A stretch of DNA of 64,000 nucleotides from Eledone cirrhosa (Eukaryota). Of the stretch, positions 8,086 through 63,187 are shown in pieces. The stretch's first letter is position 1. Each line of letters begins with the position of its first letter. Under the pieces are notes generated by a model. It worked only from the letters and a program-made list of their open reading frames with translations, had not been told where the DNA came from and ran no database searches. The stretch covers positions 80,848,001 through 80,912,000 of the forward strand of contig OZ024747.1 in the NCBI GenBank assembly GCA_964016885.1, given 5' to 3'. A program made the position numbers and the translations under genes.

Positions 8086-8869
8086 GACTGACTTGTCATT
8101 TTATCAGTCAGATATCCTAATGATAGTGCTAACAGAGAGAAATAAATGTCGTCCATTTTACAGTTACTTTTCATTTCATATTTTCTGGCATTTCTAAACG
8201 CCCGTTTCGTTATTGACACCATACTACATGAGAATTCAAATCAAAGTTCTCTTTTTCAACGCTATGTATAATCCGTAGGTCTGCAGAGTAGATACAGAAT
8301 ACTCATATTGTTAAGGAGTTAACTTAGCAGTCTTTAGGTTCCGGTTTGGATCGCAATGCGTAGCATCTTGAGCAAGTGTGACTTATAACCACAGGCTGTG
8401 GCGGACTGGCCAGGTTGCAAAGTTGCCCAATGGCAAGTGGGCCCCAAGGATACAGCCGTAGCATTGCAGGAGCCCATAGTAAATTTGCAGCGCCCACTTT
8501 TTTAGGGGCCAATGCTTTCCTTTAAAAAAAATACCTGAAGTGTAAGAGGGAGAAAAAAAATTAAAAAATGTAAATGAATCAATTAAGCAAAGCATTTGGT
8601 CAACCAATTCCCCAAGAAATTACTAGAAACCAAGATATATGATTGTGCAGATAGCTGGAATCAGTGGTTGTACATTCTTCTAAATCTAAAGCTTAGTGTA
8701 TTCATTCATGCACACATACATATATAGACACACACACAAGAATATTTATATATATATATACGCTTGTGTGTGTCTCTATATATGTATGTTTGCATGCAAA
8801 CATACATATATATAGATACACACGGTAATCCTTTTCATTTTTATTCTATGGGATGTAAAATAAAAACTG

Positions 8870-8957
8870 AAAAAGATTACATGTACCTCTCGATCAGGAT
8901 TGAACCCAATACCAGGATCTCCACCGTCTCTAGTACTTACCGCTAGGCCACTGAGAC
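8870..8957 (-). ncRNA. Pol III-like small RNA unit 1 (tRNA-like or SINE-like)
   Basis: Minus strand: TTTATAAGTATAAA about 25-35 nt upstream, A box GTGGCCTAGCGGTA, B box GGTTCAATCC, T5 terminator. Confidence 0.6.
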
Positions 8958-9518
8958 AGTTACGAAATGCACCTGAAAATTTATACTTATAAACCTACTG
9001 TCAAAATTTTCAAAACACAATCATATAGTGTCGTTCATGTCTTTCTTAATGTTATTGCTCCTACTTAAGGTCGACTTCTAAATCATTTGGGTGTTCCATA
9101 AATTACATCCTCGTTCTGTTTCTCATCTATCTAGACTATATTTTAACCTGTAATCCATGTTTCATTTCTGTTGCACCTCATTTCTCCCCCTCTCTCTGTG
9201 ATATTTGAATCTACCATGATTTGGGTTTACTTTATTCATATACATGTTTTTGCATGTCAGATTCAAACTTACCATTATGTATATATGTATATATATATAT
9301 ATATATATGTATTATTTGTTTGTTAAAATAATCAAATTAAATTAATTCAACAGTTAAAAACACAGAAATAATTGGTTGTTACCAAAGGGCCAGAAGATTG
9401 ACAAGACGACCCTAAATATCACTAATAGCTCTAGGAAAGCCATGAACGAACCACCACATTTTAACTTTGATTTTGAAAGTAGGTTTATAAGTATTAATTT
9501 CCGTCAGACTTTTCATCA

Positions 9519-9612
9519 GTCTCCGTGGCCTAGCTGGAGGAATCATAGACAGTAGTGATCCTGGTCTAAAGTTCGATCCTGGTCGGGAGTCGGGTTCCCG
9601 GTAAATTTTTTT
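9519..9612 (+). ncRNA. Pol III-like small RNA unit 2
   Basis: TTTATAAGTA 9484-9493, A box GTGGCCTAGCTGG 9525-9537, B box GTTCGATCC 9571-9579, T7 at 9606-9612. Confidence 0.6.
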
Positions 9613-9638
9613 CAGTTTTTTCCTATGGGACGTAAACT

Positions 9639-9699
9639 AAAAAAGATTACATGTACCTCTCGACCAGCATTGAACACAACACCAGGATCTCCACTGAGA
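9639..9699 (-). pseudogene. Pol III-like unit 3, A box deleted
   Basis: 9620-9795 parallels 8845-9055, with a deletion between two ccac direct repeats. Confidence 0.6.
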
Positions 9700-9833
9700 A
9701 AGCTACGAAAATCTACTGAAAATACTTATAAACCTATTTTCAAAATTTTCAAAACAGAATGATGCGGTGTCGTTCATGTCTCTCTTAATAATTATTGATA
9801 AGGTATATAATTATTAGACACATATTCACGCAC

Positions 9834-12944: not shown

Positions 12945-13149
12945 ACTAAATTTAGATTTAATCGATACATATTAAATATATGCCGATCGTGTCTCAATAA
13001 AAAAAATACTCAATGAACATTAGTTCAGAACATACAATTATACATTAAAACTTATTATATAATGCTATGCTCTGAACTAATGTTCATTGAGCTTTTTTTT
13101 TTAATACACAATCGGTATTGTATAAGTATTGATTAAAACTAAATTTAGT
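12945..13149. repeat. Degenerate fold-back palindrome
   Basis: actaaatttag / ctaaatttagt ends and ctcaatgaacattagttcaga / tctgaactaatgttcattgag inner arms. Confidence 0.8.
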
Positions 13150-13307: not shown

Positions 13308-13358
<51 letters not shown>

Positions 13359-13513
13359 ACACGGGTGTTTATGATTGTGTATAGAAGATTATATTAATAA
13401 GGGGAATTCCAACTTTGTCTGATTTACTCGTTTTATTTACAATCCTTTAAAATATATATAATATGGTATTATAATGAAATAGTATGATAGAATATTAAAT
13501 TCTAAGTGTTAAT

Positions 13514-13552
13514 TGAACAAGTACTTTCATGCTTTCGCAATCTTCAGGTTCA
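13514..13552 (-). ncRNA. Minimal type I hammerhead ribozyme (family H1)
   Basis: TGAAC CTGAAGA T-TGC-GAAA-GCA-T GAAA GTAC TT GTTCA: both core boxes, 5-bp stem I, GNRA-capped stem II, palindromic stem III AGTACT. Confidence 0.88.
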
Positions 13553-13929
13553 TGATATGTGGTGACAGTCGAGTTTGCAATTTTCAACTGTAATGAGATG
13601 GGTAAATTTACTACCTTTTATACATTTTATACAGAGAAAAGTGGCTCCAGAATGCAAAGCCCTGTAAACTGTATTTCGACCAATCAGTGTGTAGTTTCAC
13701 TGAATTACTACAGCTGATTGGTTTAAGCGTCACGGCTGGTTGAGCATGCTAACGACCAATGGTCATACCCAACGTATCAATTGTTTTGCTTTTTGAAATG
13801 ATGAAAATAGCATTTTCTATTAATCATCACCATCAACATCACTTTTATTATTATTATTATTATTGTTGTTGTTGTTGTTGTTAGTGGTCGTGGTCATAGT
13901 GGTAGTAGAAGTAATACCCCTAGGCGTTA

Positions 13930-14376
13930 TTATTGTTCATTTAGCTTGGGTTTGAATTTATCAATAACATTCTTTTCTTTGATTTTTCTCTTGATTTCAC
14001 TTGGGCTGTGTAATTTGTAGAATGGGAATATTATAAATATTCCCTGACCACATGTTGCCAGGTGGCCGCTTAGGGGTATCTGACGGACAGTTGGCTCTCT
14101 GATTTGTTGACGGTGTACCCGTGCACGTTCCGATAGTGCATTTCCAGTTTGACCGACATATAGTTCTTCACAATTCGGGCATTTAATGCAGTAAATTAGA
14201 TTTCTGCTTTTGCAGTTCATATTTGCATTTGGGAATATTTTTCCAGTTTTTGTTTTCATATATTGTCCGGCGTGTATGGATTGACATGTGCCGCATCGAT
14301 TATCATTGCATTTAGATACAGTGAATGATTGGTCTTTGTTGTTAAGGTCAAACTTTGCTTTTGTTAGCAATTGCTT

Positions 14377-14378
<2 letters not shown>
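13930..14378 (-). CDS. PLE C-terminal GIY-YIG endonuclease fragment with Cys-rich linker
   Basis: CNDNRCGTC..C..NLIYCIKCPNC..LYVGQT..R..H..H..E..I..F.P.LN; the YIYI N-terminus of the predicted ORF is microsatellite. Confidence 0.9.
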
Positions 14379-14416
<38 letters not shown>

Positions 14417-14418
<2 letters not shown>

Positions 14419-14446
14419 AATCACTTGTTATTTCTGTTTACTTTTT

Positions 14447-14502
<56 letters not shown>

Positions 14503-14532
14503 AAAATGTAAACAGAAATAACAAGTGATTCT
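14417..14532. repeat. Palindrome centred on (CA)n(TA)n(TG)n
   Basis: agaatcacttgttatttctgtttac / gtaaacagaaataacaagtgattct arms around self-complementary microsatellites. Confidence 0.93.
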
Positions 14533-14619
14533 AATCGCTAAGATTGATGGTTTGCATCTTTTCCACGATTGTTTGAAACAGATCTGTATAGAAAATTTTA
14601 GGACCTTTAAATTTACCAT
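14531..14619 (-). pseudogene. Candidate terminal coding exon of an unidentified host gene
   Basis: Acceptor ctttctttcag|, phase 1, reading (D)GKFKGPKIFYTDLFQTIVEKMQTINLSD*. Confidence 0.4.
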
Positions 14620-18442: not shown

Positions 18443-18787
18443 TAAATATGGTTTTATAAATATAGTTTCCATTTATTAATATATTGTATATATATTTATT
18501 AAAATTTATTGTTATTACTATTATATATATAATATATTTATATAATAGAAAAAACAAGGAAGTTTCCTTTACATATACAAAATATTCATTGTGTATCGAC
18601 CTGTTACATGCGTTTCGTAGAGGATTGGCTCAAGGTAACTGATAGGAGTAATTCACTGTACTACCCACACACACACACACTATATATAGGGATTAGCTGC
18701 ACAGTAAGCATTTGTATATATATATATATATATATATATATGGAGAAGAAGTTTTTGAAACGGAAATGCGGGTATAAAGAATTTATT

Positions 18788-18904
18788 AGGTAACAATTGT
18801 TTCTATAGTGTATGGGTTACCTATACCTCGCTATTTGAATAATATAAAAATATTATCATAAACCGAAGGTACACTGTAAGAAAACACACCATGTCTTCAG
18901 ACCT
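18788..18904 (-). ncRNA. Hammerhead ribozyme, long stem II (family H2), inverted pLTR copy
   Basis: Reverse complement of AGGT CTGAAGA..~90 nt..GAAA CAATTG TT ACCT. Confidence 0.75.
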
Positions 18905-19073
18905 TTGTAGTGGAATGATATGAAAATATTTTATACACTAGATATAAGATAAAGAAGGAGGTCGGAAGGGAAGGGGAAGAGGGAAGCGAGTAATGGGGAA
19001 GGAGTCCTAGGATTTACGACTGTCACAGTAGTAGAGATTGTGTATAAAATATTTTCATATCATTCCACTACAA

Positions 19074-19191
19074 AGGTCTGAAGACATGGTGTAGTTTTCT
19101 TACAGTGTACCTTCGGTTTATGATAATATATTTATATTATTCAAATAGCGAGGTATAGGTAACCCATACACTATAGAAACATTTGTTACCT
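19074..19191 (+). ncRNA. Hammerhead ribozyme family H2, 5' pLTR copy
   Basis: AGGT CTGAAGA...GAAA CATTTG TT ACCT; stem III palindrome has one substitution. Confidence 0.72.
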
Positions 19192-19398
19192 AATAAATTC
19201 TTTATACCCGCATTTCCGTTTCATAAATTTCTTCTCCATATTTTCTCCGGATTTTAAAACACACTTTATTATACGTTGAGCAATCTCCGACGTCGGTTGA
19301 CTCCATCCAATGCGACTACTTAGTAACATTGGAATACAAATTTACTAATTCTTCACACTCCTTTACAGTCGAGTAACCTATCAACCTACGTCTCGGAA

Positions 19399-21625
19399 AT
19401 GGAAAAACATCATTGTGGTATGTCCTTAAAAAACATACCCATTCAGGGTAAAAAAGAATACATTCTTGGTATGATACAAAGGACCAACGAATTTATTCGG
19501 CGGATTAGATAGAGGGCCTTCCACTTCGATAGGAAAAAGATTACACAAACTTCCGACACCAACAACGATAAGTTTGGTTTCAAATCCTACAAAAACCCAC
19601 CCTCTAACCCTCTTCTGGATTCTTTCGAGCAGGACTTAATGAAAATGATAACCGGAATCAAATTTACAAACGGAAGGAAAAACGAACTGCAACGAGATAT
19701 TAAAACTCTACTCGATAACCTAAGGAATACCAAAGGAATTATCATAAAGGCAGACAAAACATCAAATCTATACACCCTGGATGTAGAAACATATAATAAT
19801 TTTATACGTAAGGAATTACATAGGAAGTACAAAAAAACAAACGCAACTACACTAACCAACATTAATAACGCAGCATGTGATATTGTTAAGAAACTGAAAA
19901 TCGACGACCGAACGGTACCCCTATCTGACTTTTAATCTGAAGGACCATAAGGATAACTTCGATACCTACCCTAAAATTAGATTAATATGTCCTTCAAAGT
20001 CCGATATAGGTAGAATCAGTAAGTACATATTAGATCGTATTATCCCCCAAGTTAAGGCTAAGGTAGATATTAAATTATGGGGTAATACTCAACAGGCAAT
20101 AAGATGGTTCAATAACATTAGTGACAAAAACAAATCTTCTTTTATTCAATTCGATATAGATGAATACTATTCCTCTATTTCACCTGAAACCCTGCATAAG
20201 GCCCTCTCATTCGCTAAGGCTAACTCGGACCTCACAAACGAGGAAATTAATATTATACTTGAAGCTAGACGCACAGTAGTGCATTTTGAAAATAGTTATT
20301 GGGTCCGCAGAGATAGACCCTCGGAATTCGACATTACGAATCTGGTTGGGATCTATATAGCCCACAGACTCCAGAGCGAATTTGCGGACCTCCACGGCGG
20401 AATCTACCGCGACGATACACTTCTATTAGTCAAGAATATGAACAAACAAAACCTAGAAAGGCGACGTAAAAACATTAGGAAACTTTTCTTAGAACTAGGG
20501 CTTAATATTACCTTCGAACACAATCTTAAGGTGGTCAACTTCTTGGATGTTACCTTCAACCTTAATAACGGTAATATAGAGCCATTTCACAAACTTAATG
20601 AAAATCTCAAGTACGTTAATGTAAAATCGAACCATCCCCATTCCATTATTAAATCTATCCCTAAAAATATATCCATAAGGATCTCCCGACTGTCGTCTAA
20701 TTTGCAGACCTTCAACGAGCATGCTGAATATTATAATGACGCACTTAGAAAAGCTGGTTACTGCGAGAAAATAGAATATCTAGACGATAACCACATAAGT
20801 ACTATGAATAAAACACATCTAAGTCGAACTAGTATTGCACCACACACACACATCAATAGGCATACTAATAGGTGCAAACCAGCAAATAGAGTCAGACGTA
20901 GAGAGTACATATGGTATAACCCCGTGTACAATATTTCTATTAGCACTAAGATTATCTCACAATTCTATACACTAATCAATAAACACTTTACAACTTCACA
21001 TAAATACTATAAAATCTTTAACTCGCGCACCATTAGACTCTCATACTCCACTGCACCTAACACAGAACAACTAATTAAAAACTCAACTCAGCAATACTAA
21101 ATAAGTACATCCCTAACGACACAGCGCACCAGCATAGCAACATACAACGCACTAACACGCAACTACAAACCCACCAAACTATCCAGGATACTACTGCAAA
21201 ACATAAAAATAACTGTAACTGCACCAAACCAGGTACGTGCCCACTGAATAACCAGTGCCTAGCACGCAATATTGTCTACCGATGTACAATAAATTCCGGA
21301 ACCAACAAACGGTATTACGTCGGATGTACCGCAACATCTTTCAAAGCTCGCCTATACCAATATCGATCTTCGATCAGGCACGAGAAAATGCGCTCCGTAA
21401 CAACCCTCGCCGATAAAGCCTGGCAGCTCCGGAGGAACAATCAAGCATTCTCCCTTGATTGGCAAATTATTGCAACTGCGCCTGCATATAAGCAAAATCA
21501 TCGATTCTGTAAATTATGCAATATGTAGTTATACTGCATTTTAACGTCGGAAAACAAACTTTTGAAAAGCAAAATTGATACTGTAACCATCGTTTGAAAA
21601 CGACTTTTTCTTTTTTTAAATGCAT
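19399..21625 (+). pseudogene. PLE reverse transcriptase plus GIY-YIG endonuclease ORF (disrupted)
   Basis: ATG 19399 MEKHHCGMSLKNIP; TAG 19510; KADKT; frameshift ~19930; LKDHK..P.IRLI.P.KS.IG.ISK; FDIDEYYSSI; IYRDD; FLDVT; CNC..CPL..C; IVY..YVG; CKLC; CNH. Confidence 0.92.
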
Positions 21626-22030
21626 GTAATGCTACACCACCGTTTGCAAATTTCTGTTTTATATGTTTATACACACGATATGGCTTTCTATAATAATAGT
21701 ACTAAACACTGTTTTTGGACCCCTTTAGAAATAACCTGCTACTATAATAGCCCCAATAACTTGTCGGTAACTCTGTACCACTTTGACCCCTTTAACTAAA
21801 TTTTGTCCAAACAACACCACTAGAAGAATTTACTTCCCCCGCCAACCCTAACACGCCTCATTAAGCTAACTGCTGCCAAAGTATTCTCTCCTTACAATCT
21901 CTACTACTCTGATAGTCTTAAATCCTAAGACTCCCTCCCCCTGACTCGCTTCCCTCTTCCCCTTCCCTTCCTACCTCCTTCTTTATCTTATATCTAGTGT
22001 ATAAAATATTTTCATATCATTCTACTACAA

Positions 22031-22147
22031 AGGTCTGAAGACATGGTGTGTTTTCTTACAGTGTACCTTCGGTTTATGATAATATATTTATATTATTCAA
22101 ATAGCGAGGTATAGGTAACCCATACACTATAGAAACAATTGTTACCT
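22031..22147 (+). ncRNA. Hammerhead ribozyme family H2, 3' pLTR copy
   Basis: AGGT CTGAAGA catggtgtg...tacactata GAAA CAATTG TT ACCT, followed by AATAAA. Confidence 0.78.
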
Positions 22148-22298
22148 AATAAATTCTTTATACCCGCATTTCCGTTTCATAAACTTCTCCATATTTTCTC
22201 CGGATTTTAAAACACACTTTATTATACGTTGAGCAATCTCCGACGTCGGTTGACTCCATCCAATGCGACTACTTAGTAACATTGGAATACAAATTTAC

Positions 22299-22347
<49 letters not shown>

Positions 22348-25340: not shown

Positions 25341-26419
25341 TAACCGAATAAATAATGCCTTGTAATCTCGCCACTAATTGCTTTTTTTTTCTTTTTCTTT
25401 TTCTTTTTCTTTTTCCTTCTTGTTTTCCTTTTTTCATGAATCATTTCAGCAAAATAGGGGCGAAGTGAAGTTTAGAAATATATTTTTATTAATAACAATT
25501 TTATTTATCTACTATTACTTAGAATGGCAAAAGTATGCATGGGTCTACTGAAAAGTTCAAAGGCTGACCAAGATACTTTCATTGAATTACCAAATGAGGT
25601 TTATTTTTCAATTTAGTCTCTGGAAAGAAACAAGGCAGTTATTAATAAAGAGAGCTGAAATTAATGCATGCAAGATTTCACAGCATTAGCATCACTCCTT
25701 CGTAGACAGTCTATGAGATTTTCAGCCCTTCCTTTTTAATCACAAAAATACCTATCTTACGCGGGGTAACATTCTAACGTATACTCGTATATAATTGTAG
25801 TTGTCAGCTTATTACTAATCATCAGATTCACACAGGACTGCGTTCAATATTCAATTAATTTTAACTACGTAATTGAATTTTGTCAGTCTACGACTTCAAA
25901 TATGGTAATGTCCGCTATAGTATTAAGTTTTCATTAGGCAAGATCTAATGGGTTTAATTAATTACAATTTGTCGGTTTGCTATATCAATTATACGATATA
26001 TAAATATATATAATTATTACGATTTTATACAGCTGGATTTCCTGAATATTTTCCCAAACATTCTTCGTATATTCATACATATCTCCCTACCTACCCACCG
26101 ACCTATCTACCTTCTTACATATCTACCTACCTACCTATCTATCTTCTTACATATCTACCTACCTACCTATCTATCTTACATATCTACCTACCTACCTATC
26201 TATCTATCTATCTATCTTGATAGAGTAAGACACGCTTCACATCGGCTCCGCTATTCTATCGGGATTTACCCTTACTAATGTAAGTACCGGATAAATTTTT
26301 CAGTGCAACACATTTGGAACACTAACCCCTGTTATTTAGGGAAACATTTTTGCATTTACCCCCTTTTTAGGGGGTAAAATAAATATCTAATTTTGCCGAA
26401 AAATTTCGTTCTTGGCAGC

Positions 26420-28235
26420 ATGGCGGAAAAGATGGCAGACATGTCTGCCATTAGCTCTGCCACGCCCCCCAAGTCTGAAGAACAAAAAATAATTACAACA
26501 AAATTAGACAAAGAAACAAACAAAGAAAATGAAAAAACAAATGTTAAGGAAAATGAGCAAACGGAAAACAAACAAACAGAAAATAATACAAATAACAACA
26601 GGGCAACTTTCGCCCAGAAAACAAAACAATCCATTACATACACACCAATTGACCTAACGGCCGCCAGAGAAAAACTGGCCGAAGCAAAGAAACACATTGT
26701 TTTGGGGGAAAATGGAATGTTTTCCATTAACTCCCCCCCAGAATTCAAGAAAACGAGAACCGAGAACACAGTTCTCTTCAGAACAATCCTAAACGAAACA
26801 AGAAAGCCAGCACAGCCCAGCCAAATGGAGATAGAGTTGGTCCTAAAAGACTATATGAAGAATATTCTCTTCATACGAAAGGACCGACTCTATGGCAGCA
26901 TTTCGGTCTTAACAAAAGACAAGGAAACGGCGGAGAAGCTTTCCATAAGCCCACTCACATCGACAACATACAGCTTCTATCCCTCCTACATGGGTAGAAG
27001 AACACAGAGAGTAAAAATACAAACAATGCTGCCCACAATGGACTTCTGGTGGGCTATTGCTGGCTTCATAGACATGGGCGAGGACACAGTGCTGTCAATG
27101 GGGAAGGCATCCGGAGATGCGTTTCTGGGAATGGGCCTCGACCTACTAGTCCAAATGAGGCCCGAAAGAATAGCACAAATCCCGGATCGCATCTGGCTGG
27201 ATGAGCTCACCCCAATAGATATAATTGTAGAGGGGAGAAGACCAGCATGCTATTTATGCATGGAAAGGGGACACATTAAGGCTAACTGCCCGAAACGTGT
27301 CCCCCAAAAAGGACTATTGCCCACACCCACCACAAACAGTACACCAACACCACCCACCTCCAAAAATACACTAATACCACACACAGCAAACAAAATACAA
27401 ACACCACCAAGCACATCACCACCACCAGCAGCAAACACAAGCTCGACACAAAAATCACCACCACCATCACCAACACAAACACCATCACCACCATTACCAA
27501 CCACAAGCACGACACAAACAGCACCACCACCACCACAAAACGCATTCCAAACAAATAATAAAAAAAAAACAGCAACAAATCTACCCCTCCCGCAAAAAAA
27601 AACCAGACACGACGTCCCTCCCACCTAGCGCTGAAGAGTTTCCCCCAACTTCTGAAGAAGAAGGAGGAGAAGCCTTCAGACAAGTTAAAAGAAAAAAAAG
27701 AAAGCACACACCCAGCACACCACAAATAACCCACACACAAACACCAACTCCAATAAAAAATACCCCACCCTCAACAAACAAAAATAAATCTGCGCCTCCC
27801 CTCTCCGAAACATTGACAGCATCACAAAAAAGACATTGCAATACACATATATAAATAAAGAAAACAAAAAACTGTTTAAATTAATAAACAATAGCCCTTT
27901 GGTGCAGACCGAAGGGCCAAACTTTATCTCAACAGAGAACTTCACCCATTTAAAAATGATAAAGGTCCCTCTGGACCTTTATCGTTCCTTAAAAGAACAA
28001 TTTAGACAGGACGTGAGCCCCCCCCTGTTTAAAACCGTTAAATCGCGTCCTCTTGAAAGACTTCCCCATAACCTCCCCTCACCCCGACACAACTCCAAAC
28101 ACCCCAACCCAACCACACTCGGGCACCCCCACACCACCACAAAACATCCCTCCACCCAACACACCTGACGCCATGGAAATTACACAACCCGGAGAGGTAA
28201 GTGCTTTTCTTTCTTCACTTTCAACACCAAAATAG
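26420..28235 (+). CDS. Tx1 ORF1 (gag-like, zinc knuckle), frameshifted in its C-terminal half
   Basis: Open to 27628 with CYLCMERGHIKANC and a Pro/Thr-rich tail; plausible continuation in other frames after A-runs (EEEGGEAFRQVKRKKRK; ORFs 27836, 28053). Confidence 0.8.
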
Positions 28236-31200
28236 ATCAATTAAGAGTTGGCTGTTTGAACGCGCGTGGCCTGGGCTCAGCTTGGAAGCAAGCAAAGCTA
28301 CTAAGTGACCTCAGGTCACGAAGTATAGATGTGATCGTTGTTTGCGAGAGTCGGATCAGCAGCGTGCGACAGCTGGCTCCCGCCTTCGATGACTTTGAGA
28401 TGCACGCATCTCTCTGTCAACCCAGAGGCGGGGGGGGGGGGAGTTGCCGTACTGCTGGATAAACGTCTGGCTCTCGACGTACAGATTGTTCACTCGGACC
28501 CGGGGGGTCGAATACTGGTGCTGGACGTCGGAGGCGGTGAAGGCGGGGCTTTCAGACTGGTCGGTCTTTATGCCCCCTTCGGGGCTGAAAGAGCCGACTT
28601 CTTCCAGCGTCTGGAGACTTTTCTAGGAACGTCGCGTTCCCTGCTTTTAGTGGGGGACTGGAATGGAATCCTAGATGCGCGTTGGGACTATGCAGGGGCA
28701 TGTCCCGATAGAGGGGGGTGTAGCAGCCTCAAGGGGTTACTCGATCGATTCGACCTGGTCGATAGATTTCGACTAGATTGTCCAACTGCGCCAACCTGGA
28801 CCTGGGCAAACCGCAGTGGACAATCTAGATTGTACCTAGATAGGTTTTTGGTTAGGAGTAAGGATAGGGACGTATTTAGTTGTCCAGAATTGATCATGGT
28901 TGGCTATTCAGATCACAAATTAGTGACCTGCGTGGTCAACCTTGATAGAACGCATAGACAGGGTCCCGGTTACTGGAAGATGAACTTGTCCTTGCCGGCA
29001 AAGAAAAATTACAGGAACCGGATTAGTAGCTTAGTTAAGATGCGGTTGACGGGAGCGATTGTCAACAGTAGGTGGTGGGTATCTCTAAAGAGAGAGATTA
29101 GAGTAAGTTCGATAGGTTACAGTAAGGAACTAGCGGCGAATAGAAATAGGAAGGAAAGGGAGTTAACAGATAAACTAGAAGAGGCGATTAGGAGCGGAGA
29201 CGTAGCCAGAGTGTTAGCGGCTAAAACGGCGTTGAGCCAGTTCTTTGACGCGAAGCACGAAGGCTGCGTTGTCCGAAGTAAAATACGTGCTTTAGGAAAC
29301 GAGGGGACCAAAGCTGTTAGCTGGGCCCGCGTGACAGAAGCCAAGAGTGGGATTAAATCCACCATTCGGTCTTTGCGAGACCAGGATGGACGGGTGATCC
29401 TTGAACCTGAGCGGATGTGCGAGGCCTTTCAAAGGCACTTTGCTCGACTGTTCGGAGGGGGCGGGGGGCCGGACGGGGATGTGGACTTCGGTCCATACCT
29501 CGACGGTCTACCGCGTCTTTCGAGCGGCGAAGCGGAGTGCTGCGAAAGGCCAATCACAGCCACTGAAATCGGGGAAGCGCTCAGCCAATGCAGCAGACGC
29601 AAATCTCCGGGTCTCGATGGTCTACCATACGAACTTTATTTAGCTATGCCGGTCTTGTTCTCCGAACTCCTCGAGGCTGTCTATTGCAACTGGCAACAGA
29701 ACGGGAGAATTCCCTGTTCTGTGACCAAGGGCGTGGTCACGCTAGTGAGGAAGGACGAGAGCAAGGGGGACGACTTAAGTAACTTTAGGCCCATAACTCT
29801 GCTGAATGCAGAGTTACAGATTTTGGCCAAGGTGTTGGCGAAGAGGTTGGCGCTTGTGGTGGGTGGTTTGGTGGGAGACGCGCAGACATGCGCTATCCCG
29901 TCCAGGTCCATTCACGACAACCTCCACCTCATGCGATACATCATAGAGAGGGTTGGCAACGAACCCGGCTTTGGTGGGGCCCTGATCAACTTGGATCAAT
30001 CTAAGGCGTTCGATAGGGTCGACCATGGTTACCTGGAAGCGGTGCTAGCGGCGGCGGGCTTCGGACCCGTTTTCAGGGGCTGGATTTCTGCCATGCACAG
30101 TGGCAACATCTACTCTAGGATTAAAGTAAACGGCTACCTCTCGGAGCCGTTTCAAATCACCCGGTCCATCAGACAGGGGTGCCCCCTCTCCTCCCTTCTG
30201 TACGTATTGACTCTCGAGCCACTGCTGCGGAAGTTGGAGTTGCTGCGGGGCATACCCCTGGAACCGGGATTGCACAAAGCGGTCTCGGCCTATGCCGACG
30301 ACGTAACAGTAATGGTGGCGGACGCCTCGGAAATCGGGGCGATCGCCACCCTACTGGAGGAATACGAAAGGCTGACGGGGGCTAGGCTGAACCGGGACAA
30401 GTCAGTCGGTTTGCAACTCGGAACGTGGAGGGGCAAACCGATGCCGTTAGACGGTGTCGTCGGGCGGTGGACGGAGGGCCCGGTGAAGCTGCTCGGGGTC
30501 TGGTTCGGACCGGACCTCCAGGTGGAGAAGAATTGGGGCGAGGTGACGAGCAGGGTGTTTGCGCTGACCCAGAAGTGGGCCAAGTGCAAACTATCACTGA
30601 AAGGTCGGGCGGAGGTGACGAACGCTTACATAGCGTCCGTCATCTGCTACCGCCTGACCGTCGTGCCTTGCCCCAAGGAAAAGATCACCATCATGGAACG
30701 CATGCTCTTCCAGTTCCTCTGGAAGAAGCGGCCTCCCATGGTGAGGAGATCCATCTGCTGCCAGCACCCTTCGAAAGGAGGGCTGGGTATGCCGTGGCTG
30801 TTGATGCGTAGGCACGCATTGAGGCTACGGCATCTACAGGTATTCCTCACCGGTCAGCCGGTGTGGGCCCCGTTTGTGAGACGAGCCTTCCCACAGCTCG
30901 TCTCGCTCACCGAGCTGCAATCCTGGGTGAAGCAAAGACCGAGAAAACTGGGCAACTGGCACACCGAGTGTGCCCAGGCGCTCACGGCTATCGGGCAAGC
31001 GGACCCGACTGTCAGTGGAGAATCCACCTCGACATTCTATAGAGGGCTGGTGGCTAGCAGGGGCGACGACACCCTTGGAGAGTCGCTAGGCATGGAGGAG
31101 GACGAACTGGCCAGCCTGTTCGGTAGAACTTTCGGCCCGGGACCCATGGACAACTTCCAGAGGTCCCTAGCCTGGCAGTGTTACCGGGGGGCTCTGCCCG

Positions 31201-31673
31201 TTCGAGAAAAGCTCTACAGACACGGGCGCCCGGGCAGGGATCCAGCGAAAAAGATCTGTCCCAGATGCGTGCGCGACGAGGAAACCGTTGCGCATGCACT
31301 GGTACACTGCCCGGGCGTTGCCGATCTGTGGGGCTACGTCGAACGACTGCTGTCGCGTGTGGCGCCGATTCGATTAACCGCCGAGTCTGTGGTGAACATC
31401 AAGCCGCCTCCTCCCTTCAGAAACGAAGCAGAAGCGGTCTTTCTGTGCGTAATAGCCATGATGAAAGAGGTTGTGTGGTGGACGCGCCTGAAAGGTCTGA
31501 GGTCGGGTGACTTTCTCTCCGGCCATCACCTGGTTTACTTCTTCCGATACCACTTCGGAAGAAGGATCAGGATGGAGAGAGAAGTGCTTGGCCCCAGACA
31601 GTTTTATGAAAGGTGGGTGAAAGAAGCGAGAATGGCTCGTGTAAATGGGCCTTCTCTCTACATTGTTCTGTAG
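28235..31673 (+). CDS. Tx1 ORF2: APE endonuclease, reverse transcriptase, C-terminal CCHC; one frameshift in the G-run ~28430-28441
   Basis: VGCLNARGL..VCES | GVAVL, LYAP, GDWN, LDRF, SDH; KSPGLDG, FRPITLLN, DQSKAFDRV, QGCPLS, YADD, CPRC..ETVAHALVHC. Confidence 0.95.
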
Positions 31674-31978: not shown

Positions 31979-32950
31979 TCTGGCACCTCGAGTGCCTACA
32001 GGCGCTCACACCCCTCTACCAAGTGGAAACGGCAATCAGCGGAGACTCTACTTCGACATTCTATAGGGGATTAGTGGAGGATAAGTGCGACGACGTTGTC
32101 GGGGAAAAACTAGGCATCGAGGAGGACGAACTGACCAGTCTGTTCGGGAGGACTTTCCGTCCAGGGCCTATGGATAACTTCCAGAGGTCTCTGGCCTGGC
32201 AGTGCTACCAAGGAGCTCTACCAGTTCGAAACAAAATCTACAGGCACGGACGCCCTGGCAGAGATCCTGCCATAAGGACCTGTCCAAGATGCGAGCAGGA
32301 CATCGAAACCGTTCTGCACGCAATTGTTCAGTGCCCAGGGGTGCCCGAACTGTTGAATTATGTCGAACAGCTAGTGTCACGTGTGGGACGCATCCAGTTG
32401 TCAGCCGAGTCTATCGTAAGGATCACCCCGCCGCCTTCATTTAAGAACGAAGAAGAGGCGGTTTTCCTCTGTCTGGCGGCTATGGCGAAAGAGGTAATAT
32501 GGTGGACGAGGTTAAAAGGACTGAGGGCAAACACCTTTCTCTCCGGACAACACAACTTATCCCCTTCTTTAAGTACCACATCAGAAGGAAGGTGAGAGTG
32601 GAGAGAGCGCTGCTACACCCCAGTAAATTCGCTGAAAGGTGGGTGAATGTGGCAAAGATGGCCCGAACGAATGGGCCTTCTCTGTATATAAACCTGTAGG
32701 TTGAGGAAGATAAATAGAGGGAAGACAGGAACACCTACAAAACGTGTTCCTGGTGTTGAGGGTTGTTCTATCCACGGGGTGTAAAACAACGCTGCAATAA
32801 CGTTCCCCCCTATTGGGGATTTCAATTGTTATTTCATTATATATAGTTTATTGTTATTTATTAATGTTAAAGTTATTTTTATGTAAAACCCCCGCCGTCA
32901 CGTCTTGTAATGTCCCATTTGTGTACGCCCCTGTGGCAAATAAAGAAAGA
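31979..32950 (+). mobile_element. 5'-truncated Tx1 copy of a sister subfamily
   Basis: WHLECLQALT..MDNFQRSLAWQCY..CPRC..HAIVQC..NGPSLYINL*, homologous to the ORF2 end; different 3' UTR ending gtggcaaataaa then (TCTG/TCTA)n. Confidence 0.93.
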
Positions 32951-34131: not shown

Positions 34132-34172
<41 letters not shown>

Positions 34173-34288
34173 TTAATAAGAGGAATTCCAACTTTGTCTG
34201 ATTTACTCGTTTTATTTACAATCCTTTAAAATTTATAATGGTATTATAATGAAATAGTATGATAGAATATTATATGTTAAGTGTTAAT

Positions 34289-34327
34289 TGAACAAGTACT
34301 TTCATGCTTTCGCAATCTTCAGGTTCA
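34289..34327 (-). ncRNA. Hammerhead family H1
   Basis: Identical to 13514-13552. Confidence 0.88.
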
Positions 34328-34399
34328 TAGTATGTGGTGACAGTCAAGTTTGCAATTTTCAACTGTGAAAATTGCAAACTTGACTGTCACCACACATTA

Positions 34400-34438
34400 T
34401 GAACCTGAAGATTGCGAAAGCATGAAAGTACTTGTTCA
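34400..34438 (+). ncRNA. Hammerhead family H1
   Basis: TGAAC CTGAAGA TTGCGAAAGCAT GAAA GTAC TT GTTCA. Confidence 0.88.
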
Positions 34439-35259
34439 ATTAACACTTAACAATTAATATTCTATCATACTATTTCATTATAATACCATTATAAATTTTA
34501 AAGGATTGTAAATAAAACGAGTAAATCAGACAAAGTTGGAATTCCTCTTATTAATATAATCTTCTATACACAATCATACACACCCGTGTATATTTATCTA
34601 TCTATATATATATATATATACACACACACATACACACACACATATATATATATATGCCCACATTAACACATATATTCGGAGAGGTATGCATACTGGGTTC
34701 TGAAAGAAATAATAGAAACTGTTGACCGAATATTGTTAGCAGCGGAATTAAAACATATGGAATTTTCAGGCATCTGTAGTACTTCAGTAAACAACAAAAA
34801 AGTTCGTTTCTTAGAGATTAATGCTTATTCAATTGAATGAAATTCAATTGAATAAATAAATCAGATTCGTATTTATGTGAAAAACAATATCACAGTCCTC
34901 AATGTCTCCTTCATACATTGAACAGTAAAATTATGCAAGACATTTCTGAAGTTCAATAAACGATTGTCGATTTGTTGTTTGAAATTCATTGCAGAGAGCT
35001 TACGCCTTAGTAATATACCGTTGTTGAGGAATTTCAAAGGATATAGCAAAGAGAATATATACATATATTCAAAGACAGATGTTTCGTGTTTTCGTTTCAA
35101 CAAAAGTACCTTTTCATTTCGCTCAAGACAGCCTCTTACAAACAAAATACCTCACAGAATATTAATAGGGAACCGACACAGACACAGACACAAAATCATA
35201 TATCCTTACAACCACACCCACATATACACACACAAACACACACATATATACATTTACAT

Positions 35260-36274: not shown

Positions 36275-37166
36275 GGAGGTGAGTTTTATTTATGAACGTA
36301 AAATTATAACTAGCACCAGTTCCCTCACCTATTTTGGCTCCACTTCCACCTCTTTTAAAGCTCGTCTCTATAATCATCATTCATCTTTCAAATACAAACT
36401 TAAAAGAACCAACACTGCTCTCTCAGAACTCATATGGTCCTTAAAAGACAAAAACATTAAATATACCATGTTTTGGAAGAAGATTTCTTCTGCATCCTCA
36501 TACTTGAACAGCTCTCTATCTAAAATCTGTAATCTCTGCCTAAATGAAAAATTTACCATTATCTCTAACCTAGATTCTATAATAAATAGACGCACAGATT
36601 TGTTTTCTATCTGCCTGCATAAATTCCATAGAACTTTTCACAAAGTATACAGTTAATATTCAATTCTTTATCAATTTAGAATCTTTTCTCAAAGGCACAT
36701 ATACATACACCTCTTTAAAATATACCCATCTACCTTACTTTAAAGGGCATTATACACTCTATAATACTTGTTTACTCATTACCCTCATTCTATCTTCACC
36801 TTGTAAAATCATAACATATACATTTGTTGTTTTGACGTTAGAATATTCATCCGCAATCATTATTATTTTTTCTCTCTATCATAAATCTTTTTAATCTCAA
36901 TTTCATCCTTAATTTATTATTTTTTTCTCCCCATCAACGAACTCATTATTAATACATATTAACTCCTTATTCGCATATATTATCAATTCCTTCAATATAC
37001 AAACTTTAACTTCACATTATTTTTCTCAAATCCTTCTACACACAAACCTTAATAATTTTTCTCTTCGTTAATTTTGAAATTGCCACAATACATACATTTC
37101 TTTTTTTGACGTTAGAATATTCATCCACAATTATTATTTTTTTCTCTCTATCTTCATACATAAATT

Positions 37167-37800
37167 CCCTTCGTTAATTTTCAAATTCCTTTAATTTATA
37201 CATTATCTTCCAACGGTTCTCAACCTCTCTATGTTAAAACAATATATCTTTTTCTCAGTTATAAAAACTATCTCTTTCTCTCTATCACCCATCTCTCCCT
37301 CTCCACCTTCACTCTCATCTCCTCCCCCTTTTTTTTCCATCCTTTCCCCCCCCCCTCCCTAAATAAAATATTTTTTCCTCGCACATATCCTCCCTTCGTT
37401 AATTTTCAAAATTTTTAATTTATACATTATCTTCCAACAGTTTTCAACCTCTCTATGTAAAACAATATATCTCCTCTCAGTTATAAAAACTATCTCTTTC
37501 TCTCTATCACCCATCTCTCCCTCTCCACCTTCACTCTCATCTCCTCCCCCTTTTTTCCCATCCCCCCCCCCCTCCCTAAATAAAATATTTTTTCCTCGCA
37601 CATATCCTCCCTTCGTTAATTTTCAAAATTTGTAATTTATACATTATCTTCTAACGGTTTTCAACCTCTCTATGTAAAACAATATATCTCCTCTCAGTTA
37701 TAAAAACTATCTCTTTCTCTCTATCACCCATCTCTCCCTCTCATCTCCTTCCCTTTTCATCCTTTCCACCCCCCCCTCTCTAAATAAAATATTTTTCCCA
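37167..37800 (+). repeat. Three tandem copies of a ~220-bp pyrimidine-rich unit
   Basis: cccttcgttaattttcaaa recurs at 37167, 37392 and 37609. Confidence 0.92.
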
Positions 37801-50131: not shown

Positions 50132-50486
50132 TATGAACGAATAAATATTCTAAAGACATTACGCAATAGTGATGGCCTAAACACGAGAAATGAATTCTTC
50201 ACACGTCCACACGTCTGGAAACACCTCTTCAATAACTACAAACCTCCGGATCGAATTACAACAACATCCTAATTTTCTTATCAACTAGAAACTTTCGGAC
50301 TTTCGCAGTTATCTCCCTTACACCTCTCGCACGCAATTTAGTATTGCCTGTGTGAAGTGATCGTTTCTGCGCATGCGTGTTCGTACGGTTGTCCTTCCTG
50401 TACCGTATAACCATGTCCATTACGAGCTGAGGATCCGCTAAGGTGAAACAATTGTTCTCGGTATGGTGAACTAACTGTTGTGTAAC

Positions 50487-51426: not shown

Positions 51427-51479
<53 letters not shown>

Positions 51480-51641
51480 TAGATAAATATACACGGGTGT
51501 GTATGATTGTGTATAGAAGATTATATTAATAAGAGGAATTCCAACTTTGTCTGATTTACTCGTTTTATTTACAATCCTTTAAAATTTATAATGGTATTAA
51601 AATGAAATAGTATGATAGAATATTAAATTCTAAGTGTTAAT

Positions 51642-51680
51642 TGAACAAGTACTTTCATGCTTTCGCAATCTTCAGGTTCA
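51642..51680 (-). ncRNA. Hammerhead family H1
   Basis: Identical to 13514-13552. Confidence 0.88.
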
Positions 51681-51752
51681 TAGTATGTGGTGACAGTCAA
51701 GTTTGCAATTTTCAACTGTGAAAATTGCAAACTTGACTGTCACCACATACTA

Positions 51753-51791
51753 TGAACCTGAAGATTGCGAAAACATGAAAGTACTTGTTCA
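51753..51791 (+). ncRNA. Hammerhead family H1, one stem II substitution
   Basis: TGAAC CTGAAGA TTGCGAAAACAT GAAA GTAC TT GTTCA. Confidence 0.8.
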
Positions 51792-51945
51792 ATTAACACT
51801 TAGAATTTAATATTCTATTATACTATTTCATTATAATGCCATTATAAATTTTAAAGGATTGTAAATAAAACGAGTAAATCAGACAAAGTTGGAATTCCTC
51901 TTATTAATATATATATATATATTAATATATATATATATATATATA

Positions 51946-52083
51946 GGAACCAGTAAGACCCCGACAGCTGAGCTCAAGCCGTTTCGACGGCTAATTCTGG
52001 ACAGAATTAGCCACTCTACTACCTCAAGTATTGAGTACTTTGGTGCGTTATGGTCCACCTGGTTCCTTACCAGATTTCCTTCG

Positions 52084-62818: not shown

Positions 62819-62950
62819 TAGTTATGTAATAAATAACATAAGACAGTTATTCCATTTACCAAAGGTTTCACGAAGACAGATGAGCTCGTCTGTCTTCGTG
62901 AAACCTTTGGTAAATGGAATAATTGTCTTATGTTGTTTATTACATAACTA
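62819..62950. repeat. 132-bp near-perfect palindrome with a hammerhead 3' half in each arm
   Basis: Centre GAGCTC 62882-62887; arm reads GAAA CC TTT GG TA AATGG AATAA. Confidence 0.9.
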
Positions 62951-63002
62951 AATAGCTCTGTAGCCTACATAGAGCACTCAGTCCATGGGACGAGTTTGAT
63001 AG

Positions 63003-63136
63003 AAGTAGTTCCACAACAGTTAGTTCATCATACCGAGAACAAATGTTTCACCTTATGTGGATCATCAGCTCGGTCTCAGACCGCATAAGGGTGAAATATT
63101 TTGTCTCGGTATGGTGAACTAACTGTTGTGGAACTA

Positions 63137-63139
<3 letters not shown>
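63003..63139. repeat. Imperfect palindrome of the H5 pLTR family
   Basis: aagtagttccacaacagttagttca / tgaactaactgttgtggaactactt; right arm matches 50435-50490. Confidence 0.9.
63032..63074 (-). ncRNA. Minimal hammerhead (family H5)
   Basis: ACCGAG CTGATGA TCCACATAAGGT GAAA CATTTG TT CTCGGT. Confidence 0.82.

Positions 63140-63187
<48 letters not shown>

Follow-up and report, generated by a model that had tools for sequence, protein, structure and literature searches.

Discordant loop polarity and tail side in two Penelope-like palindromes of Eledone cirrhosa, and a possible origin from two cDNAs

Introduction

How can two copies of one palindromic insertion carry their loops in the same orientation and their tails on opposite sides? 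This question is raised by a 64,000-nucleotide stretch of Eledone cirrhosa DNA (OZ024747.1, positions 80,848,001 to 80,912,000), hereafter called the window. The window is AT-rich, animal-type DNA with many (TA)n arrays, and the two copies, A and B, are flanked by such arrays. According to an initial annotation, the source would be a palindromic master that carries a tail on each arm and is mobilised from either strand.

Inverted pLTRs, one-sided tails, palindromic junctions, and non-autonomous pLTR derivatives of Penelope-like elements (PLEs) are already in print, with tails reported at either end (PMC8557442; PMC3846280; bioRxiv 10.64898/2026.07.22.740005; PMC8969392; PMC7229834). How PLEs form inverted ends, how they finish insertion, and whether the template is sense or antisense RNA are described as open in the available text of three of the sources consulted (PMC3846280; PMC8557442; PMC11167929). 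Self-priming on an antisense template has been proposed for head-to-head palindromic junctions (PMC3846280, Discussion), an idea close to that of the initial annotation. A biochemical guide is PAc, a Poseidon element of Anolis carolinensis. In vitro, both strands of an AT-rich target are nicked and extended. On a template that includes the junction of the 5' pLTR and the ORF, the RT has two internal start sites, and these set the limits of the tail (PMC11167929). In this study, we aimed to explain the arrangement of loop and tail in copies A and B.

Materials and methods

Copies A and B were compared with each other by alignment and with the window by BLAST. Folding of the palindrome was compared with that of 100 shuffles, and the hammerhead-like motif was compared with 30 shuffles. 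The chance of the TATA spacing was calculated on the window with and without masking of TA repeats.

Fifteen public sequencing runs were listed. The best of them contains 0.73 of the words of this DNA, so the runs possibly come from relatives and not from this genome. Four of the 15 (X1, X2, X5, and X13) were aligned to the non-palindromic copy C described below. Run depths are given as summed contig or read depth and are not copy numbers. The raw run is a reduced-representation library, in which molecules start at GCATGC and end at AATT. Published work is cited from those parts of each source that were available.

Results

Copies A and B share one anatomy. In copy B (51477-51911), a tail of 45 nt is followed by an arm of 193 nt, a loop of 4 nt, and the inverted 193-nt arm. 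The AC-rich tail (51477-51521, minus strand) is the 3' end of the pLTR, runs into (TA)n, and is identical to the tail of copy A. Next come the tailed arm (51522-51714, sense on the minus strand), the loop (51715-51718, minus strand), which reads CAGT in the parental sense and is continuous with the tailed arm, and the tail-less arm (51719-51911, plus strand), which ends in (TA)n. Copy A (34169-34603) is made up of these parts too, but its tail is at the right. Its tail-less arm (34169-34361, minus strand) is continuous with the loop (34362-34365, minus strand, parental sense CAGT), followed by the tailed arm (34366-34558, plus strand) and a 45-nt tail into (TA)n (34559-34603, plus strand).

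The plus strand reads TTTTCA-ACTG-TGAAAA at both centres, as expected from the ACTG loops that had been annotated at these two positions. The tails lie on the sides first described, at the right in A and at the left in B, but measure 45 nt and not about 48 nt. Their identity as pLTR tails was borne out, both copies being Penelope-like pLTR ends with a tail. The tail-less arms of A and B stop at the same last base, after which (TA)n follows, again as annotated. Copy A and the reverse complement of copy B aligned colinearly over 435 nt with 16 differences, four of which make up the entire loop. Since all four loop bases differ in otherwise colinear sequence, B is the inverse of A except at the loop, and the statement that one copy is not simply the inverse of the other holds. 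The discordance between loop and tail is a real feature, resting on two phased copies. Random loop polarity would give such a discordance half the time with two copies.

The palindrome folds with z = -45.7, and 0 of 100 shuffles folded equally well, so the palindrome is not a product of chance. The tail alone has no significant fold (z about 0). The TA repeat blurs the tail edge of the palindromes, and the tail-less end overlaps the TA target by 5 nt (ATATA). The TA microhomology postulated for the second end is thus present, but it does not discriminate between the models, because an RT priming at a fixed start could equally make use of it.

Some end motifs are reiterated. At the tail-less end of B, the last bases are repeated after a few TA units (51903-51935), and at the tail end of copy C (13340-13360) a 6-nt unit occurs in three to four copies. 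These repeats may reflect slippage or re-priming by a telomerase-related RT. Between the TA flank of copy B and the next TA array lies a short non-repeat stretch with an internal 24-nt inverted repeat (51945-52075), which may be the end of a further small retroelement.

When A and B were compared with the window by BLAST, a third, non-palindromic copy emerged, copy C (13340-14380, minus strand), which is the 5'-truncated end of a PLE and the parent sequence. The 3' part of its pLTR (13340-13591, minus strand) corresponds to the loop, one arm, and the tail and is 93-94% identical to A and B. Beyond the loop, copy C continues as non-palindromic sequence into a minus-strand ORF with its stop at 13930. 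The ORF encodes a C-terminal GIY-YIG endonuclease (13930-14380, minus strand; PF01541, E 1.6e-7) with a CX4CxxC linker and a CCHH motif. The truncation of copy C, near 14380, leads into (TA)n and precedes the RT; all three copies are flanked by (TA)n. Twelve longer homologues of the ORF show 44-65% identity overall, and 8 of the 12 carry an RT domain (PF00078). The endonuclease is C-terminal in the aligned longer homologues. The two Cys inside its core and its two His are invariant in 10 of 10 aligned sequences, and the protein alignment places the C-x4-C-x2-C linker in copy C and its homologues.

Judged by sequence, copy C is an EN+ PLE, with the C-terminal GIY-YIG domain and CCHH motif of that group. 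Its CX2-5CxxC linker, C-terminal GIY-YIG domain, and (TA)n bias assign it to the Neptune type, with Nematis as the remaining candidate clade. The Naiad clade, which has an N-terminal endonuclease and no canonical hammerhead, was rejected, as the endonuclease is C-terminal here and a hammerhead motif is present. Tails of EN+ PLEs are confined to one end and are usually 30-40 nt long (PMC8557442); A and B have such a tail, at 45 nt slightly above the typical length. No full-length copy of the family of copy C occurs within the 64-kb window, and neither the arm nor the tail showed homology to the N-terminus of the homologous ORFs. None of the candidate loci from a scan with the protein alignment was confirmed (0 of 41 and 0 of 140).

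The context of the hammerhead and the endonuclease in copy C indicates that sense runs towards the tail. Immediately 5' of the arm, copy C reads CAGT in the sense direction. The loop is therefore parental sense sequence, and its polarity only records on which of the two head-to-head arms the extra 4 nt lie.

The tailed arm of B contains a minimal type I hammerhead-like motif (approximately 51642-51680, minus strand) with the core CTGAAGA...GAAA, a palindromic GTAC helix III, and a 5-bp stem I. The core, stem I, and GTAC helix III occur in all five arms of A, B, and C, and 0 of 30 shuffles contained a hammerhead motif with a palindromic helix III. Minimal type I hammerheads of PLE pLTRs have a small helix III and usually a G10.1-C11.1 pair (PMC4209133), which the motif here is without. 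The motif is a putative ribozyme, like those in PLE pLTRs. No hammerhead match to Rfam was present among the 150 of 191 matches listed, and the microRNA-type hairpin matches among these, all sub-threshold, were rejected as chance. The hammerhead pattern had no matches in genome and viral contigs.

Copy C carries a perfect TATA box, TATAAAAG (13615-13622, minus strand), as a predicted promoter element. Position 13591 is the last base common to copy C and the palindrome centres, and the first T of TATAAAAG (13622) lies exactly 31 nt upstream of it. About 31 nt is the usual distance from a TATA box to the Pol II start. From this spacing in one copy, the RNA 5' end of the pLTR is predicted at the centre shared by A and B. 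The TATA box itself is absent from both palindromes. In the TA-masked window, the chance of the spacing is 0.0013 (offset 30-31) to 0.0038 (offset 28-33), for a single copy and a motif that was noticed first. In the unmasked window, the loosest TATA motif rises to 4-6%, due to microsatellites. Among known PLE promoters, that of Drosophila virilis Penelope is TATA-less and lies inside the pLTR (PMC2377424), and TATA and Inr-like motifs have been noted in Adineta pLTRs (PMC3846280). The centre pattern had no matches in viral contigs; its 24 matches in metagenome contigs were all dropped as unrelated, with similarity of at most 27 nt.

The arms differ at 4 of 193 positions within A and at 4 of 193 within B, and at 4, 6, 6, and 8 sites across A and B. 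The outer 104 nt of the arms of A are identical, as are the outer 73 nt of the arms of B. The arm differences show no A>G excess (1 or 2 of 8, too few to weigh). Changes at arm positions 85 and 86 are common to both arms of A and are lacking in both arms of B and in copy C. In X5, T>G at 13501 accounts for 233,386 of 432,781 summed depth, and the A-type variant for about half of summed depth at 13501-13502. Being common in X5, it is a family variant and not private to A. By these variants, A and B seem to have arisen independently, from two subfamilies, while having their centre and ends in common. Such sharing would be automatic if each copy were built anew from pLTR RNA.

In the public runs, the boundaries of the palindromes recur. 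Among the X5 records listed, 26 of 2,568 aligned contigs leave copy C at 13390 into TA repeats, which is the tail-less end, and 4 contigs fold back at 13588, which is the same centre. Among the X13 records listed, 429 of 5,866 reads leave at 13351, at the tail end. One 131-nt contig of X1 matches 13580-13710 with one other letter, so the continuation of the parent beyond the loop is family sequence and not a local junction. Among the contig and read records listed for the four runs, there was no piece joining loop and tail. In the raw run, the loop falls on a 16-nt piece between AATT sites, which makes the lack of loop joints uninformative there. The X5 fold-back contigs are compatible both with the 4-nt loop of A and B and with a centre that has one base more, and the longer centre would fit annealing of two cDNA ends through a quasi-palindromic 5-mer.

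Summed depth in X5 was 307,000-761,000 in the arm bins, 4,000-63,000 just upstream, and 13,000-82,000 in the endonuclease. Depth in the arm bins is about tenfold that of the upstream UTR and the endonuclease, and the step lies at 13590. This excess is confined to X5; X1 and X2 show none. The depth ratio of tail to arm end, a crude measure, was 0.55 in X5, 0.43 in X1, and 1.43 in X2.

A near full-length PLE of another family (18741-22302, plus strand) has RT/EN frames at 19513-21528. Its inverted tail-less arm (18741-19041) meets the direct pLTR, which starts at 19040, with a 2-nt overlap at the junction. The direct pLTR begins three bases before a TATA-like motif. At its 5' end, the tail-less inverted arm exceeds the direct pLTR by about 100 nt, and this part is unpaired. 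An extension of about 110 nt is present at the right end only. The junction is not at a predicted start, so a centre at the start site is not general in the window.

The window holds further elements. A third PLE family forms a composite insertion between (TA)n arrays (62821-63140), in which a head-to-head palindrome (63002-63140), whose minus strand bears a minimal hammerhead motif, is joined to a GAGCTC-centred fold-back near 62885. A single, related hammerhead unit is present at 50423-50486. Other palindromes or inverted repeats, whose parent was not found in the window, lie at 1-857 (92% self-complementary and reaching the window edge), 8766-9800, 12945-13149, and 14416-14535. At 36276-37799, a PLE-like endonuclease fragment is followed by tandem repeats of about 220 nt. 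A LINE-like element (26378-31673) has a first frame of 416 aa and an open endonuclease-RT frame of 1112 aa, and a decayed copy of its 3' part lies at 31980-32709. An abundant SINE-like repeat with a tRNA-type box occurs in many copies over 3559-57926 and, we assume, resembles octopus SINEs.

Discussion

In the reading we prefer, to which we give a probability of about one half, each of the two nicked target strands primes a cDNA on sense RNA. Synthesis of both would run off at the RNA 5' end, and the folding of one of them would set loop polarity. Copies A and B would then be dead-end, promoter-less Neptune-type insertions at (TA)n, each built anew from sense RNA. The RNA would start inside the pLTR, 31 nt after the TATA box as judged from the spacing. 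The endonuclease would nick both target strands and both 3' ends would be extended, as with PAc in vitro. The RT would start internally at either of two sites, so that the cDNA on one side would include the tail and that on the other would lack it; here the behaviour of PAc is extrapolated to the family of copy C. The start sites would be +243 for the tail end and +198 for the tail-less end, counted from the predicted start. Both cDNAs, copied from the 5' pLTR, would run off after about 243 and 198 nt, and this run-off at the RNA 5' end would fix the centre.

The 3' end of one cDNA would then fold back with a 4-nt loop, and its extension would zip with the other cDNA. The two cDNAs have the same sequence and would not pair before fold-back, whereas the folded extension would be complementary over the whole arm. 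Folding of the tailed cDNA would give type B, and folding of the tail-less cDNA would give type A. If both folded, the loop mismatch could be resolved either way. Because the folding cDNA sets the polarity, the loop would be independent of the side of the tail, and neither antisense templates nor a master with two tails would be needed. Origin from two cDNAs would thus account for the fixed centre, the two fixed ends, the concordance of the arms, the missing TATA box, and the independence of loop and tail.

Several observations bear on this proposal. The fixed tail-less end is predicted by the second RT start site published for PAc (PMC11167929). The near full-length PLE at 18741-22302 has type-A geometry at a larger scale and is counted in its favour, together with the parental origin of the loop, the TATA spacing, the subfamily variants of the arms, and the recurring tail-less end, recurring centre, and arm excess of X5. 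Against it, the fold-back end offers a stem of only 1 bp, and DNA folding predicts neither a hairpin nor a stable self-dimer; by this folding model, fold-back is the weak step. The RT and the ORF start of the family of copy C lie outside the window, and PAc belongs to the Poseidon clade and not to Neptune; both points also count against it, as do the restriction of the arm excess to X5, the tail-to-arm ratio of 1.43 in X2, the TATA-less promoter of D. virilis Penelope (PMC2377424), and a sample of two phased palindromes.

EN+ Neptune-type PLEs likewise have head-to-head inverted, 5'-truncated pLTRs, an optional tail on one end, reported as 'at either end', a (TA)n target, a pLTR hammerhead, and at the C-terminus a GIY-YIG domain with CX2-5CxxC and CCHH (PMC8557442; PMC3846280). 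Unlike the published ones, A and B are reduced to two pLTR ends without an ORF, and their junction is at the same base in two subfamilies, 31 nt after the TATA box. As in PAc, the start sites would lie downstream of the hammerhead in an AC-rich stretch (PMC11167929). The AC-rich stem-loop of PAc is matched by the tail here in composition only, and the distance from the hammerhead cut to the tail-less end is 125 nt here versus about 85-92 nt before the main start in PAc (PMC11167929). The joining of the two cDNA ends is left unaddressed in the available text of that paper.

L1 twin priming also uses both target nicks as primers on sense RNA and yields a head-to-head join with an inversion, but its second primer acts at variable internal sites on a different part of the RNA (bioRxiv 10.1101/2024.08.27.596794). 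In A and B, by contrast, one and the same stretch of 193 nt is copied in each arm, and the starts as well as the end are fixed. Non-LTR retrozymes resemble A and B as short non-coding pLTR-related units with a type I hammerhead (PMC7229834; bioRxiv 10.64898/2026.07.22.740005). That reading was rejected, since retrozymes are head-to-tail tandems and the copies here are head-to-head pairs or single. MITEs and foldback DNA transposons are short near-perfect palindromes in TA-rich sites, much like A and B. They were rejected because of the 45-nt tail at one end, the hammerhead motif, the parent with a PLE endonuclease, and the asymmetric ends.

An unlikely alternative, though one whose fit comes close to that of the two cDNAs, is that insertion always yields type B, by a single fold-back of the tailed cDNA, its extension along itself, and a jump to the target at ATATA, and that type A arises by later inversion or conversion of the loop. 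The inversion would come from recombination or template switching between the 193-nt arms, or from conversion by another copy. Small inversions of hairpin loops are a known type of mutation. Copy B is the exact product of one fold-back, the arms around the 4-nt loop are 98% identical with a DNA fold of -206 kcal/mol, and the fixed centre and arm concordance are explained as well as by two cDNAs. Yet a second event is required in one of two copies, although divergence between the arms is no more than about 2%. In the large PLE at 18741-22302, it is the tail-less arm that bears the additional 5' sequence, though a crossover could produce this, and tails 'at either end' are reported to be common (PMC8557442).

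The two-tailed palindromic master of the initial annotation, transcribed from either strand and copied from the tail, across the loop, and out at TA, seems improbable. It would yield both classes and a fixed centre, as well as the ATATA overlap at the tail-less end; antisense templates and bidirectional pLTR promoters have been proposed for PLEs (PMC3846280), and the tail-to-arm depth of 1.43 in X2 is in its favour. None of the three copies within the window is two-tailed, however, and the crude ratios of 0.55 (X5) and 0.43 (X1) fit one tail per two arms. The RNA of a palindromic master would form a 193-bp duplex of about -300 kcal/mol, and the TATA box is absent. The different subfamily variants on the arms of A and B would need two separately homogenised masters. 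Nor would such a master explain a centre at TATA+31. That position is the expected end of a cDNA from sense RNA, where antisense RNA would end by coincidence. Together with a loop that is parental sense sequence, it speaks against the use of both strands as template. The centre at the predicted sense start points to self-priming of cDNA and not of antisense RNA, unlike the scheme in the available text of PMC3846280.

Equally doubtful is that palindromes with one tail, in both classes, go back to a single origin or a few origins and at present multiply non-autonomously through read-through sense RNA, with the classes breeding true or reshuffling when two hairpin-RNA cDNAs anneal. Centre, ends, and tail are the same in A and B, arm-only sequence looks abundant in one relative (X5), and non-autonomous pLTR derivatives have been described (PMC8557442; bioRxiv 10.64898/2026.07.22.740005). 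Against such spread, the palindromes have no promoter, a hairpin would hide the hammerhead and the tail-less start site, and the arm differences, too few to weigh, show none of the A>G excess that editing of duplex RNA might leave.

Least likely of all is misorientation of the central segment of one copy during assembly or polishing: the identical outer 104 nt (A) and 73 nt (B) would suffice to defeat short reads and such structures are known to trouble assemblies (PMC8557442), but the window is without N, its spanned TA arrays of several hundred bases suggest long reads, and private differences on each arm mean that the arms were not collapsed.

Over and above the two copies, we tentatively suggest, at somewhat less than even odds, that origin from two cDNAs describes an abundant, fixed-size Penelope 'strong-stop' class, made of two 5'-pLTR run-off cDNAs, one primed on each target strand, with fold-back as the closing step. 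Head-to-head PLE palindromes that lack an ORF and have their centre at the transcription start, and loop polarity as a mechanistic marker, were not found in the literature searched; families of this kind may be present in supplements or repeat databases.

Copies A and B, the two that are phased, provide a mechanistic lead that can be tested. As the centre is fixed and the 4-nt loop marks the strand, the question of insertion becomes one of counting how loop class is distributed over tail side, age, and subfamily. If the loop simply inverts once the copy is inserted, the case is an ordinary inverted-repeat micro-inversion in a known structure. As long hairpins, these palindromes would be misfiled by MITE finders and are a possible source of double-stranded RNA. 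If their centre is the transcription start, they map PLE promoters without RNA data. If the 'strong-stop' interpretation is true, the centre is the transcription start, the ends are the RT start sites, and loop polarity tells which cDNA folded. The closing step of Penelope transposition would then be readable from genome sequence, and sense templates would be favoured.
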